From assembly GCA_964632315.1 (NCBI GenBank), contig CAZWEM010000055.1:1-25883 (forward strand): a stretch of DNA of 25,883 nucleotides, given 5' to 3'. Made by a program: the position numbers and the translations under genes. The notes under the pieces were generated by a model. That model ran no database searches. It saw nothing but the letters and a program-made list of their open reading frames with translations, and was not told the origin of the DNA. Origin of the DNA: an uncultured archaeon (GTDB lineage Archaea; Asgardarchaeota; Lokiarchaeia; Sigyniarchaeales; SOKP01). Positions 11,781 to 20,088 of this stretch are shown one piece after another (the first letter of the stretch is position 1; every line of letters starts with the position of its first letter).

Positions 11781-12017
11781 TTATTCAGACAAAAATTTAA
11801 AGAATTTTTTAGTATCTATTCCTTCTTTCTCAAAAGCATAAACCATTAATTTTTTTTCCTCAATTGATAATACATCTTCAAGGAATTGCTGAATACCCTT
11901 TTTTTCATAAGTTAATGAACATATTGGGCAGTATATCTTATCATCGAGTTCCCAAATATTAGCACTTTTACATCTGGGGCAGAAATAAAAAGATATTTTA
12001 TTCTCTTTCATTATCAA
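11781..12017 (-). CDS. small zinc-ribbon protein
   Basis: CPRC-x13-CPIC in a 78-aa ORF, divergent from the his operon. Confidence 0.7.
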   Translation of the reverse strand: MIMKENKISFYFCPRCKSANIWELDDKIYCPICSLTYEKKGIQQFLEDVLSIEEKKLMVYAFEKEGIDTKKFFKFLSE

Positions 12018-12076
12018 TGATTTTATTAAAAATTATTTAAACTCATTTCTTATTCTGCAGCTATTGATCCCCGTGC

Positions 12077-12106
12077 TTATATACAAAGCTTTTTTAGGTG
12101 ACTCAC
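12077..12106 (+). promoter_or_regulatory. putative TATA box and adjacent palindrome upstream of the his leader
   Basis: TTATATA at 12077-12083 and GTGA-C-TCAC pseudo-palindrome at 12098-12106. Confidence 0.35.
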
Positions 12107-12156
12107 AATAAAATATGTAAGAATAGATATTAGATTTAGAATAATGTGATTGAAAC

Positions 12157-12303
12157 ATGAATTTTTCAAAATACAATGTTTTGAGCCATAATCACTTACT
12201 TCTTAACAGATTAAATTTCATTTTTGAAGATTTTAAAAAGCAAAATGCTAGTATGAGCCTATCTGATAAATTTTACTTGCATCATTGCCAACATCATTAT
12301 TAA
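12157..12303 (+). CDS. putative His-rich leader peptide (uORF) of the his operon
   Basis: MNFSKYNVLSHNHLLLNRLNFIFEDFKKQNASMSLSDKFYLHHCQHHY* (48 aa, 6 His). The in-frame ATG 12253 gives MSLSDKFYLHHCQHHY* (16 aa). Four CAT codons fall in the last 7 sense codons. A GTGAT RBS-like element precedes ATG 12157. Confidence 0.7.
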   Translation: MNFSKYNVLSHNHLLLNRLNFIFEDFKKQNASMSLSDKFYLHHCQHHY

Positions 12304-12383
12304 TTCCAGGATTTTATTTTGAATAGATGCTGGAATTAAATAAAACTGAATTCTAGTTCAGTTTTGGGGGATGTAATCATGAT
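12288..12383 (+). promoter_or_regulatory. putative attenuator: alternative hairpins between the leader ORF and the hisIE start
   Basis: Perfect 10-bp inverted repeat TTAATTCCAG (12300-12309)/CTGGAATTAA (12330-12339), and a 9-bp stem AAAACTGAA (12342-12350)/TTCAGTTTT (12357-12365) directly before the GGGGGA RBS and ATG 12379. Confidence 0.6.
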
Positions 12384-13281
12384 ATTATTAAAAATAGAAA
12401 ATAAAGATATGGAAAAATTTGGAGGTTTGGAGAGATTGATTAATGAGGTTGTCTATCCGAGAAATTGGGATCTCTTCATAACTTTAATCCTCGAAATAAA
12501 TAAGAATTGTATAATGAAAATGATTGAAGATGGAATTTTAAAAAGTGCGTGTGAGAAAGTTGACATCTGGATTCAATCTGATGATCGATCAGTGAGAAAG
12601 TTATTACTAAAAAACAGGGTAAAAGGAGTTAATTTCAATCTAAAAGAAGACGACATTATTCTGGAACTTAACACAACTATGAGTTTTCTGAGAATTGATA
12701 AAATCCTGATCGATATTCTTGATTTCAAGAAAATGAATGGTTTGATTCCCACTATAGTCCAAGATGAGTATGGAAATGTATTGATGCTTGCTTATTCTTC
12801 TGAAAAGTCACTTGAAGTTGCGATTTCGACTAGAAGAGGTACTTTTTTTAGTAGAACTCGAAATGAAATCTGGATAAAGGGAAAAGAATCGGGAAATTAT
12901 CAAACTCTTGAAAAAATTTATTATGATTGTGACAAAGATAGCTTGCTTTTTAGAGTGAAACAAAAAAATGTTGCATGTCATACAGGTTCTTATTCTTGTT
13001 TTCAAAATACTAACTTCTCGTTAAGATCATTGAATAAGATCTTGGTTGAGCGCAAAAATGATTCCTCAAATACAACATCCTATACTAAAAAACTATTAGA
13101 AAATAATGAGCTCTTGATTTCGAAAATTAAGGAAGAATGTAATGAAGTTGTTAATTTCACTGATCAAGAAAACCTAATATGGGAGATCGCAGATTTGACT
13201 TACTTTTTGCTTGTTTTAATGGTTCAAGAAGAAATATCCCTCAGTGATATAATAAATGAGTTAAGGAGTCGAAACGAATGA
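12379..13281 (+). CDS. hisIE: bifunctional phosphoribosyl-AMP cyclohydrolase / phosphoribosyl-ATP pyrophosphatase with N-terminal extension
   Basis: HisI motifs GLIPTIVQD, VLMLAY, FSRTRNEIWIKGKESGN, DCDKDSLL, ACHTGSYSCF. HisE motifs SYTKKLL, KIKEECNE, EIADLTYF. The GGGGGA RBS favours ATG 12379 over TTG 12364. Confidence 0.95.
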   Translation: MILLKIENKDMEKFGGLERLINEVVYPRNWDLFITLILEINKNCIMKMIEDGILKSACEKVDIWIQSDDRSVRKLLLKNRVKGVNFNLKEDDIILELNTTMSFLRIDKILIDILDFKKMNGLIPTIVQDEYGNVLMLAYSSEKSLEVAISTRRGTFFSRTRNEIWIKGKESGNYQTLEKIYYDCDKDSLLFRVKQKNVACHTGSYSCFQNTNFSLRSLNKILVERKNDSSNTTSYTKKLLENNELLISKIKEECNEVVNFTDQENLIWEIADLTYFLLVLMVQEEISLSDIINELRSRNE

Positions 13282-14297
13282 ATAGTGAGAAAATGCCCAT
13301 AGATTCTTATAAATCACGCCCTATAAGGCTTGGCATACCGTCTAAAGGAAGAATGGAAGTTGAGACTCAAAATTTTTTGAAAAATTGTGGATTTAGCCTT
13401 ATTAGGAAGAATAGGCAGTATATAGGATATATTCAAGGACCAACCTCGATTCAACTAGTATTTGAACATCAAGAGGATATCATCAGGAGTGTTAGAAATG
13501 GGACAATAGAACTAGGTATAGTTGGTTTTGATTTATTTAGAGAAAATATTCCTTCAGATGATGAGAAAGTGCTGTTAATTCACGATTCACTGAGCTTTGG
13601 GAAATGTAAACTTGAAATTGCTGTTCCAGAAATTTGGTCGGAAAAATGTATAAAAGAAATAAAAAAAAGAAAAAATTGTGTTTTAAAGGTTGCCACAAAG
13701 TTTCCAAAACTTACCACAGAATTTCTTACCGCTCAAAATATCTGTTTTGAAATCATAGAAGGAAGGGGATCTCTTGAAGTATATCCCGAATTAGGACGGA
13801 GTGATTTGATTGTTGATTTAGTGTCTACTGGACAAACTTTAAAAGATAACCGCTTAAAAATGGTTGAAGGAGGGACAATATTAAGTTCTCAAGCGGTTTT
13901 GATAGGAAATAGGAACGCATTAACGAATCCTTCCGTTTTAAAAATTACGCGAGAATTGATTGAATATATTGAAGCAACTTTGAGGGCTCAAAATTATGTC
14001 TCAGTATTCGTCAACATGCGGGGAGAAAATGAAGATGAGATAAGCCAATCAATTTTCGCAAAAGAAGGTCTTAGTGGCCTACAAGGTCCAACGATATCTC
14101 CTGTTTATAGTAAAAATGGAGAAAAAATGTTTGCTGTTCATGTTATAGTCGAAAAGGACAAATTACAACTAGCTATAAGAAATTTACGTGAAATAGGAGG
14201 TAGTGGGGTTGTTGTAGCTCAAACTTTGTACATATTTGAGGAAGAACCCTTGAGATATAAAAAATTAAAAGAAAAATTGGAGTTAGAAGATGATTAA
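13278..14297 (+). CDS. hisG: ATP phosphoribosyltransferase, long form
   Basis: IRLGIPSKGRM, GIVGFD, FGKCKLEIAVP, VATKFP, GSLEVYPELGRSDLIVDLVSTGQTLKDNRL, and a C-terminal regulatory domain with GPTISP. ATGA overlap with hisIE. Confidence 0.97.
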   Translation: MNSEKMPIDSYKSRPIRLGIPSKGRMEVETQNFLKNCGFSLIRKNRQYIGYIQGPTSIQLVFEHQEDIIRSVRNGTIELGIVGFDLFRENIPSDDEKVLLIHDSLSFGKCKLEIAVPEIWSEKCIKEIKKRKNCVLKVATKFPKLTTEFLTAQNICFEIIEGRGSLEVYPELGRSDLIVDLVSTGQTLKDNRLKMVEGGTILSSQAVLIGNRNALTNPSVLKITRELIEYIEATLRAQNYVSVFVNMRGENEDEISQSIFAKEGLSGLQGPTISPVYSKNGEKMFAVHVIVEKDKLQLAIRNLREIGGSGVVVAQTLYIFEEEPLRYKKLKEKLELEDD

Positions 14298-15636
14298 GAT
14301 ATATAGTAAAGAAGAGGCAAGTAAATCTATTCTATTAAGAAATTATTTTTCGAAGGAGAGACTACCACAGCGAGTTAAGGATTCAATTAAAAAAAATTTT
14401 GGTAAAGAATTCTCTCCACAAGAAGTCGTGAAGATAATAATTGAAGATGTTAAAAAGAGAAAGGATCGCGCACTCACAGACTGGACTCTTAAATTGGATA
14501 ATGTTTCAATCACTCAATTTGAATTAAAGGAGGATTTTACCAAATACCTTCCAATTATAAGTCCAAAATTAAGAAAAGCTCTTGAAGTTGCTTATTCGAG
14601 AATATTATCATTTCATAAATCACAACCTACGAGCTCATGGGTCAATAATGATTTAGGGGGAGTTTTAGGTCAAATTATTACTCCAATTCAAAAGGTTGGA
14701 ATTTATATCCCTGGAGGTAGTTTTCCTTTAATCTCCTCAGTTTTAATGACTGCTATACCTGCTATCGTGGCGGGTACAAAAGAAATTATTTTTACTTCAC
14801 CTCCTGATAAGAATGGAGAGATATCCCCTAAAATTTTAGCTTCTTGCGGCATGATTCAAAAAGCAGGAATTAAAATACGTATCTTTAAACTCGGAGGGGC
14901 TCAAGCGATTGCAGCATTAGCATTTGGAACTACTCAAGTTCCAAGAGTGGATAAGATTTTTGGTCCTGGAAATGTATTTGTGAATCTCGCCAAAAAGCAG
15001 GTTTTTGGGAACGTAGGGATTGATGGAATTTATGGTCCCACTGAGGCAATCATAATTGCTGATGAAAGTGCCAAACCTGAATTAATAGCTGCAGATCTCT
15101 TGGCTCAAGCAGAGCATGATCCCTTAGCTATTCCCATATTTCTTACTCATGTTAAAGAACTAATATCTCGTGTGCAAGAAGAAATAAATAAACAATTAAC
15201 TCAAGTAGATCGGAAAGATATAGCCGAAAAATCTCTGGAAAGCAATGGTGGAATTATTCAAACTAATTCACTCGAAGATTCAATTCAAATATCAAACGAT
15301 TTTGCACCAGAACATTTATCATTATTGATAAAAAATCCATTTGAAGTCATCCCTCAGATTAAAAATGCAGGGGCACTTTTTTTGGGTGAAGAATCATTTG
15401 AAGTACTCGGAGACTATATTGCAGGACCAAGCCATGTAATGCCCACTAATGGTTCTGCTCGATATTCTTCTCCATTATCTGTGATTGATTTTGTAAAAGC
15501 TATAAATCTTATCTACTTGACTAAGAATGAGTCAAAAAATCTTTCAGATTATGCCGAGATATTAGCTTTAAATGAAGGGTTAACCGGTCACGCCAATACA
15601 ATCAGTCAGCGTAGAAAATTTGATGGAGGACTCTAA
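14290..15636 (+). CDS. hisD: histidinol dehydrogenase
   Basis: VGIYIPGG, GGAQAIAALAFGT, KIFGPGN, GIDGIYGPTE, DLLAQAEHD, APEHL, GDYIAGPSHVMPT. Confidence 0.98.
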   Translation: MIKIYSKEEASKSILLRNYFSKERLPQRVKDSIKKNFGKEFSPQEVVKIIIEDVKKRKDRALTDWTLKLDNVSITQFELKEDFTKYLPIISPKLRKALEVAYSRILSFHKSQPTSSWVNNDLGGVLGQIITPIQKVGIYIPGGSFPLISSVLMTAIPAIVAGTKEIIFTSPPDKNGEISPKILASCGMIQKAGIKIRIFKLGGAQAIAALAFGTTQVPRVDKIFGPGNVFVNLAKKQVFGNVGIDGIYGPTEAIIIADESAKPELIAADLLAQAEHDPLAIPIFLTHVKELISRVQEEINKQLTQVDRKDIAEKSLESNGGIIQTNSLEDSIQISNDFAPEHLSLLIKNPFEVIPQIKNAGALFLGEESFEVLGDYIAGPSHVMPTNGSARYSSPLSVIDFVKAINLIYLTKNESKNLSDYAEILALNEGLTGHANTISQRRKFDGGL

Positions 15637-15637
15637 G

Positions 15638-16762
15638 ATGAAAAGTGGCAACACGTCGATTATTACCTCTAAAAGAGTTCAAAAGTATCTGAAACTTAAA
15701 AATACAATAAGTGAACGATCCAATGAGTCGCAAAGTGATGATATAGTTTATTTAGATAAAAATGAAAATCCATATTTTCCATCTTTCGATAGACTCCTTC
15801 CATCTAAGTTTCAGAAATTAATAACAAAGTATCCGGATCCGATGTCTCGGGTATTTTTAAGTCAAGTATCTAAAGAGATCGGATATCCCATCTCATTTAT
15901 TATGGCAGGCGCGGGATCTGATGAATTATTAGATTTAATTTGTAGAACGTTTTTAGATTGCAAAGATCGTATTCTTAGTGTAAAACCAACTTTTTCAATG
16001 TATAGAAAGTATGCTGAAATTAATGGAGCAAGCTATTTGTCATATCCTCTAAATTTAAAAATCAATAGATCAACCGGAATTGCAACCTATAGTTTAAATG
16101 AAACAGACTTTTTTGAACAGGCCAAGTCTTCAAGGATTTTAATTTTAGCACGTCCAAACAATCCTGATGGTAATGTAGTTTCAAAAAACTTCATAGAAAA
16201 ATTGCTTAATCTAAATATATTGACAATCATAGATGAGGCATACATTGAATTTAGTGAAGTGTCAAGCACTCTTGACTTGATAAGCAAATATGATAATCTC
16301 ATAATATTAAGAACGCTCAGCAAGTCTCATGCTCTTGCAGGAATAAGATTAGGTTATGCAGTGGCAAATCCCTCCATTATAGAGGTATTAAAAAAAGTAA
16401 AAAGTCCATATAACGTAAATGTACTCGCTGCTCAATTAGGAAGTTTGGTAATAGGCTCAGCTGAAATCTTAGAAAATATTATGAAAATCAAATATAGTAG
16501 AGATTTAATGGTTCAAAAATTATTGAAATTAAGAATGAGCACTAAGCAGTTCTACATCCACCTAAGTCAAGGAAATTTTATCTTGATTAGATTTTTAAAT
16601 TCTCAAATTACGAATTCAATCTACCAATTTCTTTTAAATTCTCAAATTAAAGTAAGAAAATTTGGCAATGAGCTTCCAAATTGTATCAGAATCTCTATTG
16701 GCACGAAAAACCAAATGGAAAAGTTATTAAAAAGTTTTAAAACATACTTCGAGGGGAATTAA
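15638..16762 (+). CDS. hisC: histidinol-phosphate aminotransferase
   Basis: LDKNENP, GSDELL, PTFSMY, PNNPDG, IDEAYIEF, RTLSKSHALAGIRLGY (PLP lysine), RISIGT. GGAGG at 15625-15629 favours ATG 15638 over the track's 15620. Confidence 0.96.
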   Translation: MKSGNTSIITSKRVQKYLKLKNTISERSNESQSDDIVYLDKNENPYFPSFDRLLPSKFQKLITKYPDPMSRVFLSQVSKEIGYPISFIMAGAGSDELLDLICRTFLDCKDRILSVKPTFSMYRKYAEINGASYLSYPLNLKINRSTGIATYSLNETDFFEQAKSSRILILARPNNPDGNVVSKNFIEKLLNLNILTIIDEAYIEFSEVSSTLDLISKYDNLIILRTLSKSHALAGIRLGYAVANPSIIEVLKKVKSPYNVNVLAAQLGSLVIGSAEILENIMKIKYSRDLMVQKLLKLRMSTKQFYIHLSQGNFILIRFLNSQITNSIYQFLLNSQIKVRKFGNELPNCIRISIGTKNQMEKLLKSFKTYFEGN

Positions 16763-16764
16763 AA

Positions 16765-17370
16765 TTGGAAAGAGAATCAGAATTACAAAGAAAGACTAAT
16801 GAAACGCAGATCAATATTAAAATTAACATAGATGGATCCGGCAATTCTAAGATTAACACTGAAATTCCTTTTTTAGACCACCTCCTCACGCAAATAGCAA
16901 TTCATGGATCTTTTGATTTAACAATAGAAGCTAAAGGAGATCTTGAAATAGATATACATCATCTAGTTGAAGATACCGGAATTCTCTTAGGGAAAGCATT
17001 TAAAAACGCATTGGGAGAAAAAAGAGGAATCAATCGTGTAGGACATTGCATTTTTCCTATGGATGAAGTATTAGTTTTAGTGGCAGTTGATTTATCTTCT
17101 AGACCGTTTTTTAACCCAGATATTAGATGGATTAATCCTTTCTTAGGTTCGAAAGAAGACTTCTTAATTCCTGTAGATTTAATAGAACATTTTCTTTACT
17201 CCTTTGCTATTAATGCTCAAATTACCCTTCATGTAAAATTATTAAATGGGAAGAATAATCATCACATTGCTGAAGGAATTTTTAAAGCGTTAGGAAAAGC
17301 ATTAGACAAAGCTTCAAGATTCAACTCAAAAAGATTAAATGTTATTCCATCGAGTAAAGGAGAATTGTGA
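16765..17370 (+). CDS. hisB: imidazoleglycerol-phosphate dehydratase (monofunctional)
   Basis: RKTNETQI, FLDHLL, GDLEIDIHHLVED, PMDE, NNHHIAEGIFKA, PSSKG. TTG start with GAGGGG RBS. Confidence 0.97.
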   Translation: MERESELQRKTNETQINIKINIDGSGNSKINTEIPFLDHLLTQIAIHGSFDLTIEAKGDLEIDIHHLVEDTGILLGKAFKNALGEKRGINRVGHCIFPMDEVLVLVAVDLSSRPFFNPDIRWINPFLGSKEDFLIPVDLIEHFLYSFAINAQITLHVKLLNGKNNHHIAEGIFKALGKALDKASRFNSKRLNVIPSSKGEL

Positions 17371-17978
17371 AAAAAATGATCGTTATTATTGATTACGGTT
17401 CTGGTAACTTACGTTCAATCCAGAAGAGCATTCGTAAATTCTATAGGGATGTTCGTATTACAGATGATTTGAATGTTATTGAAAAAGCTGATGCTCTTAT
17501 CCTTCCTGGTGTAGGCGCATTTGGAGATGCAGTTAACAAATTAATTGAAGACGGATTATTCGACTATCTAAAGCTTAAGATATTAAAAATGCCAACATTG
17601 GGAATATGTTTAGGAATGCAACTCTTATTTTCCTATTCTGAAGAAACTAATGGAGTTAACGGTTTAAATATAATTCCTGGTAAGGTTGTTAAATTAAAAA
17701 AACAATCCTCAATAAGGATACCGCACACTGGTTGGAATAGAATAATCCCAGTAACTCAACCCTACTTTTTCGGTTATGCATACTTCAATCATTCATTTTA
17801 TTGCATTCCTGAAGATCCTAAGATCATTGTTTCTTATGTTCACCATGGTTCATCCATTCCCGTAATAATCGTGAGGAATAACATTATTGGAACACAATTT
17901 CATCCAGAAAAGAGCAAGAATACTGGAAATGCTATATTGAAATATTTTGTTTCCCAAATTAGGAGGAATTTAATTTGA
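17367..17978 (+). CDS. hisH: imidazole glycerol phosphate synthase glutaminase subunit
   Basis: IIDYGSGNLRS, LPGVGAF, GICLGMQ (catalytic Cys), PHTGWN, QFHPEKS (His-x-Glu). Confidence 0.97.
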   Translation: MKKMIVIIDYGSGNLRSIQKSIRKFYRDVRITDDLNVIEKADALILPGVGAFGDAVNKLIEDGLFDYLKLKILKMPTLGICLGMQLLFSYSEETNGVNGLNIIPGKVVKLKKQSSIRIPHTGWNRIIPVTQPYFFGYAYFNHSFYCIPEDPKIIVSYVHHGSSIPVIIVRNNIIGTQFHPEKSKNTGNAILKYFVSQIRRNLI

Positions 17979-19477
17979 AAAAGATTATTCCAGCAATTGA
18001 TCTTTATAATAATAGAGTAGTAAGACTTATTCAAGGAGATTTTGAGCATTTAACTACTTATTCAATCGAACCCTTAAAAGTAATTAAAAATTTTCTACAT
18101 AAAGGTGTTTCAAATGTTCACATCGTAGATCTGAATGGGGCAAAGGAGGGTAATATTAAGAATAGCATAAATTTTGAAACAATTATCTCTTTAATTAAAG
18201 AATGCGATAAATGGGGGGTTGAATCACAGTTAGGAGGGGGAATTCGATCTAAAGAAATCATTGAAGGATTATTAAATATCGGTCTTGGCAAGATCATTTT
18301 AGGGTCCTTACCATTTGAAGAGAAGAAAATATTTGCCAAGATTATTCAAAATTTCGGAGAAAACATAATCGTAGCATTAGATGTGCTCAATAATAAAGTA
18401 AGGATTAAAGCTTGGGCTCAGAATACTGAGATTGATTTAAAAACCCAATTACGAGCGTTCGAAAATGAAGGAATTTCGAATTTTATAATAACTGATATCT
18501 CTCGTGATGGAACTTTAAATGGTCCAAACATCGAACTCTATGAGAAAATGAAGATTCTCAAAAAAGCTGAATCAGAAATAATTGCTTCTGGAGGTATTAG
18601 AAGCTTGAATGATGTTAAACACGTACTTAAATATGCGGATGGTGTAGTTATTGGCAAAGCATTATATGACAACAGGATAAGTGGTAATAATCTCGAATCT
18701 ATCGTTCTTAATTATAATCCGACTAATTTAATAAAGAGAATTATTCCATGTCTCGATGTTAAAGATGGAAGAGTGGTAAAAGGTGTAAATTTCAAAAATT
18801 TAAAAGATAGTGGAGATCCTGTAGAGCTTGCAAAATATTATAATTCTCAAGGAGCTGATGAATTAGTTTTCTTAGATATCTCTGCAACTTTAGAGGAGCG
18901 GGAGAGTATTTTAAAAGTGATACGAGAAGTTTCCGAAGAGGTATATATACCTTTCACTGTTGGAGGAGGAATAAAAAATGTAGAAGATATAACTAAAATA
19001 ATCAATGCAGGAGCTGAAAAAGTTTGCATAAACACTGCAGCAGTTATAAATCCCAAAATAATACAACTGGGTTCTCAGAAGTTCGGTTCTCAAAGTATCA
19101 TGGTAGCTATCGATGTAAAGAAAGTAAATAACAGCTGGGAAGTTTATATAAAATCAGGAACTGAAGCAACTGGCATCGATGCTTTATTTTGGGTACAAGA
19201 TGTAGTAAAAAGAGGAGCAGGAGAAATTCTCATCACGAGCATGGACAGAGATGGAACACAAACCGGATACGACTTAGATCTTATCCGGAGCATATCAAAA
19301 GCAGTTCCTGTACCTATCATAGCTTCTGGTGGTGCTGGAAATTACAATCATTTCTATCAAGCGATCAATAATGGGGCTGAAGCAGTTTTGGCAGCATCAT
19401 TATTTCATAAAAGAATGATAACAATTCGTGATTTAAAGTACTTTCTTCGAAATAAAAACATAAGGGTTAGGATCTAG
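17975..19477 (+). CDS. hisA-hisF: HisA-HisF fusion: ProFAR isomerase (N-terminal half) plus imidazole glycerol phosphate synthase cyclase (C-terminal half)
   Basis: N-half: IIPAIDL...[46 protein letters not shown]-half from ~18728: [64 protein letters not shown]. One open frame, no Met at the junction. Confidence 0.95.
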
Positions 19478-19479
19478 CA

Positions 19480-19572
19480 ATTGTTATAATTGGTATTGAA
19501 AATCTAAATTCAAGTCTGTAATGATCAAAATTAATATATGACTTTTTATTTTAATGATCAAATTATAACAAT
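19480..19572. promoter_or_regulatory. inverted and direct repeat element between the his operon and the Lrp gene
   Basis: 12-bp inverted repeat ATTGTTATAATT (19480-19491)/AATTATAACAAT (19561-19572) around two TAATGATCAAA copies (19519, 19552) 33 bp apart. Confidence 0.45.
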
Positions 19573-19668
19573 AATACGTAAACTTTTTTATTTAAACAAA
19601 GCAATATTATCAATAGAATCAAGTGAAAAAATCAATTTTACATTAAAAAATCAATAAAATGATTAAAA

Positions 19669-20088
19669 ATGGATGTTATTGATCTTAAAATTCTCGAAGA
19701 ATTGAAAGCGGACGGCAGAATGTCCTACAATAAGATAAGCAAACGCATAGGTAAAACGGAAGCAACTGTTAGAAGGCGCGTTCAAAGTTTAATTGAAGAT
19801 GGAGTGATCAAGCGTTTTACTATCGATTATGAAATGGATTCAAAGCCAAAAGTCAGTGCAACTATTAAAATAGAGCCCGATTTTAAGGATATTAAAAGAA
19901 TATTAACTGAATTAAAAGCAATTGGAGAAATTAGCGTTATTTGGCGTTTATCCGGAGATTGTGGCTTGTTAATGAAAGTTGATATTCCTTCAATTGAAGA
20001 ATTTAACCCCTTGATTGAAGATAAAATTTCACAAATTCAGGGAATTAAAATTGTAGAAACTTGTTTTATAACGGATGTAATTAAATAA
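19669..20088 (+). CDS. Lrp/AsnC family transcriptional regulator
   Basis: MDVIDLKILEELKADGRMSYNKISKRIGKTEATVRRRVQSLIEDGVIKRF HTH, plus a C-terminal RAM-like domain (VIWRLSGDCGLLMKV). Confidence 0.95.
   Translation: MDVIDLKILEELKADGRMSYNKISKRIGKTEATVRRRVQSLIEDGVIKRFTIDYEMDSKPKVSATIKIEPDFKDIKRILTELKAIGEISVIWRLSGDCGLLMKVDIPSIEEFNPLIEDKISQIQGIKIVETCFITDVIK

Follow-up and report, generated by a model that had tools for sequence, protein, structure and literature searches.

A conserved histidine-tailed leader ORF upstream of the his operon in one family of Asgard archaea, a probable ribosome-stalling sensor of charged tRNA-His

A short open reading frame (ORF) that ends in a cluster of His codons lies directly upstream of the his operon in an uncultured Lokiarchaeia archaeon, and ORFs of the same kind stand at this position in 15 related genomes. 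We analyzed the ORF within a window of 25,883 nucleotides, the whole of the DNA stretch taken from contig CAZWEM010000055.1 (assembly GCA_964632315.1). The leader is real and conserved, and it is very probably regulatory. Judged from comparative sequence analysis, the 48-codon ORF is probably translated into a leader peptide and works in cis as a ribosome-stalling sensor of charged tRNA-His for the his operon.

When the sequence was re-read, the ORF proved to be as the preliminary description had it. The peptide terminates in HHCQHHY followed by a TAA stop codon, two additional His codons (within SHNH) lie N-terminal of the final cluster, and the hisIE ATG at position 12379 follows on the same strand, 75 nt past the stop. 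That description had also offered ATG 12253 as an alternative start, giving a 16-codon ORF. This codon has no SD-like motif, whereas ATG 12157 is preceded at 7–11 nt by GTGAT, which a genome-wide count places among the pentamers enriched 5′ of start codons in this genome. In metagenomes from other studies, independent contigs match positions 12129–12450 and 12208–12450 with zero differences, and therefore the leader is not an assembly artefact. The claim of a his operon directly downstream was borne out by Pfam assignments, which give the order hisIE, hisG (long form), hisD, hisC, hisB, hisH and a hisA-hisF fusion. In the fusion, hisA and hisF share one 500-aa frame (17975–19477) with two His_biosynth stretches. 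The Pfam PRA-CH and PRA-PH domains account for residues 141–304 of the 305-aa HisIE frame. All features are collected in Table 1.

Table 1. Positions of the leader ORF, its predicted RNA helices and the his genes in the window.
Feature	Position	Strand	Remarks
Helix H0 (tentative in this genome)	12143–12197	+	5′ UTR including the SD (12143–12151) pairs with codons 12–14 (12190–12197)
SD-like motif GTGAT	12146–12150	+	6-nt spacer to the leader start codon
Leader ORF, 48 codons, ending HHCQHHY and stop	12157–12303	+	Same-position ORFs in 15 other genomes
Helix HA	12240–12289	+	Upstream leader codons (12240–12253) pair with the first His pair and flanks (12274–12289)
His-codon cluster CAT CAT TGC CAA CAT CAT	12280–12297	+	Presumed stalling site
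Hairpin H1	12300–12339	+	5′ arm 12300–12309, including the TAA stop; 3′ arm 12330–12339
Hairpin H2	12342–12365	+	12342–12350 pairs with 12357–12365; U-run 12362–12365
SD of hisIE, GGGGGAT	12366–12372	+	Directly 3′ of H2
hisIE, first gene of the operon	12379–13281	+	N-terminal extra domain of ~115 aa (Pfam)
hisG, hisD, hisC, hisB, hisH, hisA-hisF	13278–19477	+	Presumed regulated operon (Pfam)

Because the region has a G+C content of only ~29%, the contribution of chance needed to be measured. The CAT triplet is common at this composition and AT-rich DNA yields many spurious hairpins, so the ORF might be nothing but a chance product of an AT-rich promoter region. We counted ATG-started ORFs of 10–80 codons over the six frames of the whole genome (4.45 Mb) and found that 4 of 48,276 carry at least four His in their last eight residues; the other three have nothing related downstream. 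Among the 293 small ORFs that are preceded by an SD and lie upstream of genes, only the leader ORF has at least three His in its last ten residues. This rarity, together with the recurrence of the leader in 16 genomes against none of 66 control loci and the covariation of its helices, effectively refutes a chance origin, which we regard as barely credible. One further His-bearing frame in this genome is probably due to chance. It is a 64-codon ORF with an internal cluster of five His in eight residues, 166 nt upstream of a 4HBT thioesterase gene (L136, G000:C19:21577-22444). A search of the same genome for leaders specific to other amino acids returned nine best cluster-bearing small ORFs, which precede unrelated genes.

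The preliminary description had proposed a check for His-rich upstream ORFs in related genomes, and such ORFs were found. The arrangement of His leader and hisIE occurs in 16 species-level genomes, which belong to two genera of a single Promethearchaeota (Lokiarchaeia) family. The 66 other hisIE loci were drawn from other Lokiarchaeia (including Lokiarchaeum ossiferum), other archaea and bacteria, and none has an upstream frame with at least four His in eight residues. A search of 42 same-genus genomes with HisIE identified eight, including this one, in which the protein has an extra N-terminal domain, and in all eight a short ORF with a C-terminal His cluster ends 75–90 nt from hisIE. We also built a covariance model on the region from the His codons to the hisIE start and ran it on 151 genomes of the order. 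The model produced a single match per genome in 15 genomes (8/42 in the same genus and 7/53 in the sister genus), each of them immediately upstream of hisIE. The sixteenth locus, L060, is more divergent and came from a protein-based scan; its leader terminates in eight consecutive His residues encoded by a mixture of CAT and CAC codons. A metagenome scan found only near-identical relatives of these genomes. Some same-genus species (L006–L009 and L027–L029) have a second type of HisIE, ~400 aa in length with a longer and different N-terminal region, and at L006–L009 no His-rich ORF was found in any frame within ~330 nt before the start.

The 16 leaders are 36–62 codons long and have 4–8 His among their last ten codons, so that 46% of the residues in this final stretch are His, compared to 1.2% elsewhere. 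Twelve leaders start with ATG and four with TTG. Nearly all relatives have a motif of the GTGAA/GTGAT/AGTGA type 6–9 nt upstream of the leader start, and pentamers of this type are among the most enriched before start codons in this genome. The distance from the leader stop to the hisIE ATG is 81–87 nt in 14 genomes, in addition to the 75 nt found here and ~92 nt in L060, and a U-run precedes the hisIE SD in all 16.

Conservation of an ORF could also mean that it encodes a functional small protein, such as a metal-binding peptide rich in His or one that partners the HisIE N-domain, with no sensor involved. Some conservation at the peptide level is seen inside subclades, and co-occurrence with the extra HisIE domain is strict, the two being found together in 16/16 genomes while the domain is missing from the 66 other HisIE loci. 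However, outside the His tail the peptide of this genome (G000) is only 16–29% identical to the others, which is about chance level, compared with ~50% for HisIE. The length of the peptide varies over the full range given above, and its conserved stretches coincide with RNA helices. The N-domain itself (HisIE residues 1 to ~117, positions 12379–12730) contains an invariant RNWD motif and was modelled from a 16-sequence alignment with AlphaFold2 as an alternating beta/alpha fold (pLDDT 88.5). This model resembles a generic alpha/beta fold and found no PDB match at E ≤ 0.001 and no Pfam or Atlas lead. Thus, a small-protein function appears very unlikely. The N-domain was considered separately as an RNA-binding partner and set aside, since the confident model yielded no such match or lead.

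A motif of the form [IF][RK]xxDV stands 12–20 residues N-terminal of the His cluster and persists in the most divergent leaders too (15 relatives, e.g. L003:1268–1414); its position matches that of the HA 5′ arm. Selection on this motif may act on the RNA or on the nascent peptide, which would lie in the exit tunnel at stalling.

The leader region is also predicted to be structured at the RNA level, and the fold of positions 12280–12381 scored z = –4.1 against shuffled sequences. Four helices were recognized. H0 encloses the leader start codon and pairs the 5′ UTR, SD region included, with codons ~8–17. This helix outperforms shuffled sequences in 10/16 genomes (p = 0.26 in this genome), and a U-G wobble in genome G106 favors RNA over DNA. 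Because H0 appears to be an RNA helix with such a wobble, transcription should start upstream of it and the leader should not be leaderless. HA, with a 5′ arm formed by codons ~20–25 before the stop, is present in 16/16 genomes and significant against dinucleotide shuffles (p ≤ 0.05) in 11; its register and sequence covary between clades. H1 is found in 15/16 genomes and shows compensatory and G-U changes that fit the + strand only. In an alignment of 15 sequences, 96% of the H1 and H2 cells are standard pairs, compared to 24–52% with slid partners, and five pairs are changed on both sides. Several G-U pairs in these hairpins would be C-A on the other strand, and therefore the structure belongs to the sense RNA.

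In three genomes, both sides of an H2 pair have changed, from G-C to A-U. It is missing from the subclade of G007, G094 and L060, so that 13/16 genomes have it, and in L060 another hairpin with a U-rich tract stands in its place. We rejected H2 as a DNA operator or repeated element, because it is single-copy in this genome and a G-U variant in metagenome strains argues for RNA. An internal promoter between H1 and H2 was likewise rejected, the spacer being TATA-like in only some genomes.

With the first His codons base-paired in the conserved HA and the conserved peptide motifs coinciding with the arms of H0 and HA, the region might instead be a structured untranslated 5′ leader RNA, for instance a protein-binding or other riboregulator. 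The CAU repeats would then simply be an arm of HA and the ORF would be incidental. We consider this unlikely. The frame, an SD-like motif at 6–9 nt and the start codon are kept in 16/16 genomes, and indels in the alignment of relatives are multiples of three. His residues are retained through synonymous CAT/CAC changes, the eight of L060 included, and the second His pair is conserved though it is not needed for HA. In addition, every Rfam family, T-box and other riboswitch families included, stayed below its gathering score throughout the window, and a relaxed Rfam scan of 12000–12450 gave only matches with E of at least 0.59, far below the gathering scores.

On comparison of these genomes, selection is shown to keep a translatable ORF, its C-terminal His cluster and a fixed structural context before the his operon. 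Because selection keeps a His-tailed ORF at this site, we infer that ribosome stalling under low His-tRNA would alter expression of the operon.

To model the effect of ribosome position, we used constrained folding in eight genomes with a 27-nt footprint set at one of four places, the His codons (first, middle or last) or the stop codon. A ribosome with the first His codons in its A site opens HA and lets H1 and H2 form. Once the A site has advanced to the last His codons or the stop, the footprint hides the 5′ arm of H1, and this hairpin is melted. H2 is intact at every ribosome position in the seven tested genomes that have it, G007 being the eighth, and no structure mutually exclusive with H2 was found at any modelled position. 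There is thus no classical antiterminator, because H2 folds in every state wherever it is present. A classical terminator/antiterminator switch was rejected on the same constrained folds and on a dot plot of conserved helices. The only conserved alternatives are 5-bp helices of A-U and G-U pairs, for example between the first His pair and GAUGA in the 5′ arm of H1. The preliminary description had proposed a ribosome-stalling switch that senses His-tRNA. Its sensor is supported by the 16 genomes, by the 0/66 controls and by the conserved helices, but the classical terminator/antiterminator output was not found.

H2 has a predicted stability of –9.5 kcal/mol and ends in U3–4, a short run that is partly paired within H2 itself, and a consensus terminator scan identified no terminator between leader and hisIE. 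Genes in this genome end in runs of T5 or more near the stop codon without preceding hairpins, in agreement with published archaeal Term-seq (PMC7515710). Given these gene ends, a hairpin with U3–4 is not the ordinary terminator of the organism. U-rich tracts serve as archaeal termination and pause signals and are used with aCPSF1 (PMC7515710). The genome encodes a beta-CASP protein in a 638-aa frame.

We propose the following mechanism for the output of the sensor. When His-tRNA is scarce, the first ribosome would stall on the first His pair, which forms part of the 3′ arm of HA and lies 20–27 nt before the stop, and the stop-codon hairpin H1 would then fold. When His-tRNA is plentiful, the ribosome would reach the stop and its footprint would cover the 5′ arm of H1, leaving the hairpin open as RNA polymerase arrives at the U-run just 5′ of the hisIE SD. 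The open H1 would expose ~45–50 nt of naked RNA and permit premature termination at the U-run, with H2 as a pause aid and with probable help from the archaeal cleavage/termination factor aCPSF1/FttA. Under starvation, folded H1 would hide the RNA between ribosome and polymerase, and the operon would be transcribed. Pairing of H0 with the leader's own SD region would limit sensing to the pioneer, transcription-coupled ribosome. We advance this complete chain, the sensor together with hairpin-gated premature termination at the U-run, tentatively and at somewhat short of an even chance; the role of a termination factor in the output is something that we purely infer. Several points count against it. 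Stalling on the last His codons, too, would open H1, and so would have the same effect as a ribosome that terminates at the stop. No modelled ribosome position gave a structure exclusive with H2. H2 is missing in 3/16 genomes, and the U-run is only 3–4 nt long and partly paired, whereas gene ends here have T5 or longer runs and no hairpins.

The same His-codon sensor may instead act on the finished mRNA, by controlling initiation of hisIE translation or mRNA stability (translational attenuation). In one route, sequences released by the opening of H1 would pair with the SD or start region; in another, the stalled ribosome or folded H1 would protect the message from decay. Several features are consistent with an output of this kind, including the direct junction of the SD with H2 and the fact that hairpin-type terminators are no feature of this genome. 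In two genomes (G056, p = 0.03; G086, p = 0.00), the H1 3′ arm and linker show significant complementarity to the 3′ arm of H2 together with the U-run and SD, and SD accessibility drops from 0.71 to 0.17 in G056 upon opening of H1. In G007, complementarity to the SD region is found in the codons that follow the His cluster. At the divergent locus (L060:300–640, CAZZIC010000016.1), the segment after the stop has two possible partners, the His codons and the region of the hisIE start codon, the latter over 10 bp. Yet accessibility of the hisIE SD is unaffected by ribosome position in 5/8 genomes, and the H1 3′ arm does not pair significantly with the hisIE start region in the majority of genomes; we rejected such pairing as a general device because it is inconsistent. 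Sequestration of the hisIE SD by the leader was also rejected, because the native SD is paired no more strongly than with shuffled leaders. Finally, the masking of the leader's own SD by H0 suits a one-shot co-transcriptional sensor better than steady-state control. An output on the finished mRNA is a possibility that carries some weight, though not one that we would call likely. A third output, in which frameshifting at hungry His codons would carry ribosomes through into hisIE, was rejected because both other frames stop within ~45 nt (G000 and G016).

The arrangement resembles that of enterobacterial hisL (RF00514), in which a short ORF with clustered C-terminal His codons also lies directly upstream of the first his gene and is also followed by consecutive hairpins, the last with a U-run just before the ribosome-binding site of the structural gene. 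There is, however, no homology in sequence or structure. The leaders described here have 36–62 codons compared to 16 in hisL, and their His codons are usually interrupted (4–6 of the last ten) rather than seven in a row. Also unlike hisL, the His codons reside in the 3′ arm of a helix, an antiterminator alternative was not found, and the host is an archaeon with normal terminators that have no hairpins. His-leader attenuators have also been predicted in three lineages of Firmicutes, namely the B. cereus group, Peptostreptococcaceae and Erysipelotrichales (PMC9413887). Those leaders are likewise lineage-specific, lie upstream of his operons and were found by comparative genomics; they have 3–5 His codons and, in contrast to the leaders here, possess terminator and antiterminator alternatives (PMC9413887). 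Because three Firmicutes lineages have predicted His leaders (PMC9413887), such leaders appear to arise repeatedly.

The preliminary description had raised the possibility that the element is a co-transferred bacterial attenuator, a suggestion that fared poorly. The Rfam His_leader model RF00514 scored 17.6 bits (E = 1.7) against a gathering score of 49, among chance-level matches, and a His leader is lacking at the nearest HisIE loci of bacteria and of other archaea. In particular, co-transfer is unsupported because the two Clostridiales loci nearest to this HisIE lack one. Only the clade with the lineage-specific N-terminal domain of HisIE has the leader, and on these comparisons it therefore looks as though the leader arose inside this archaeal family and was not co-transferred from bacteria.

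Ribosome position can control termination without any antiterminator. In the Rho-dependent tnaC-tnaA system of E. coli, a ribosome at the end of the leader ORF decides whether the termination factor gains access past the stop. There the stalled ribosome itself masks the site, and it responds to free Trp. Our proposal differs in that the stop-codon hairpin would do the masking and the factor would presumably be aCPSF1/FttA, not Rho. The leaders also have features in common with the mycobacterial polycysteine leaderless uORFs (bioRxiv 10.1101/834739) and with ermC, in that a uORF devoted to one amino acid acts through ribosome stalling with no classical terminator. Unlike those systems, relief of SD masking by stalling is inconsistent here, and the leader has its own SD and 5′ UTR.

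By analogy with these systems, the leader seems to resemble a known bacterial kind functionally, a kind not known to have been described from Archaea. In bacteria, attenuation by leader peptides is a textbook mechanism, and it needs coupled transcription and translation. We found no report of a leader-peptide attenuator in Archaea in the open-access full-text literature, where absence is no proof. It is a doubtful but specific suggestion that the locus is an Asgard-native ribosome-mediated attenuator which has no terminator/antiterminator pair and in which the stop-codon hairpin gates access of aCPSF1/FttA, a eukaryote-like factor, to the nascent RNA at a U-run pause. If true, the locus would provide the first documented case of leader-peptide attenuation from Archaea, with an output mechanism that is new. 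Finding a conserved His leader in these archaea, the closest prokaryotic relatives of eukaryotes, would mean that ribosome-based amino-acid sensing evolved in archaea too. As no antiterminator was found, the system may reveal another way in which ribosome position is converted into gene expression. The locus would offer a concrete, mutable site at which the coupling of transcription to translation and factor-dependent termination could be examined in Asgard archaea. The annotation of these genomes also gains four RNA helices and small ORFs that had been unannotated.

The archaeal, Asgard-like origin that had been suspected from the sequence was confirmed. The genome is archaeal, because it contains a TBP gene, which among the control genomes is found in archaea only. 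Its public HisIE relatives are assigned to Promethearchaeota/Promethearchaeia, the NCBI names for the Lokiarchaeia-type Asgard phylum, and the window also encodes a Ras-family GTPase and Roadblock proteins. The sequence is found in salt-marsh metagenomes, and no RNA run was found to contain it. No TrpE (chorismate-binding) family protein was found in this 99.5%-complete genome, and therefore tryptophan synthesis from chorismate may be missing.

Upstream of the leader, a divergent gene (11781–12017, – strand) encodes a 78-aa C4 zinc-ribbon protein with a weak match to zf-RRPl_C4, just under the Pfam cut-off. The 139-nt gap between this gene and the leader start must hold both promoters. At ~19541–19595, 3′ of the operon, T5AT4 and T6AT3 runs are likely archaeal terminators. 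They are followed by a gene for an AsnC/Lrp-family regulator (19669–20088, Pfam), whose product could add a second layer of control over amino-acid genes, exerted by a protein.
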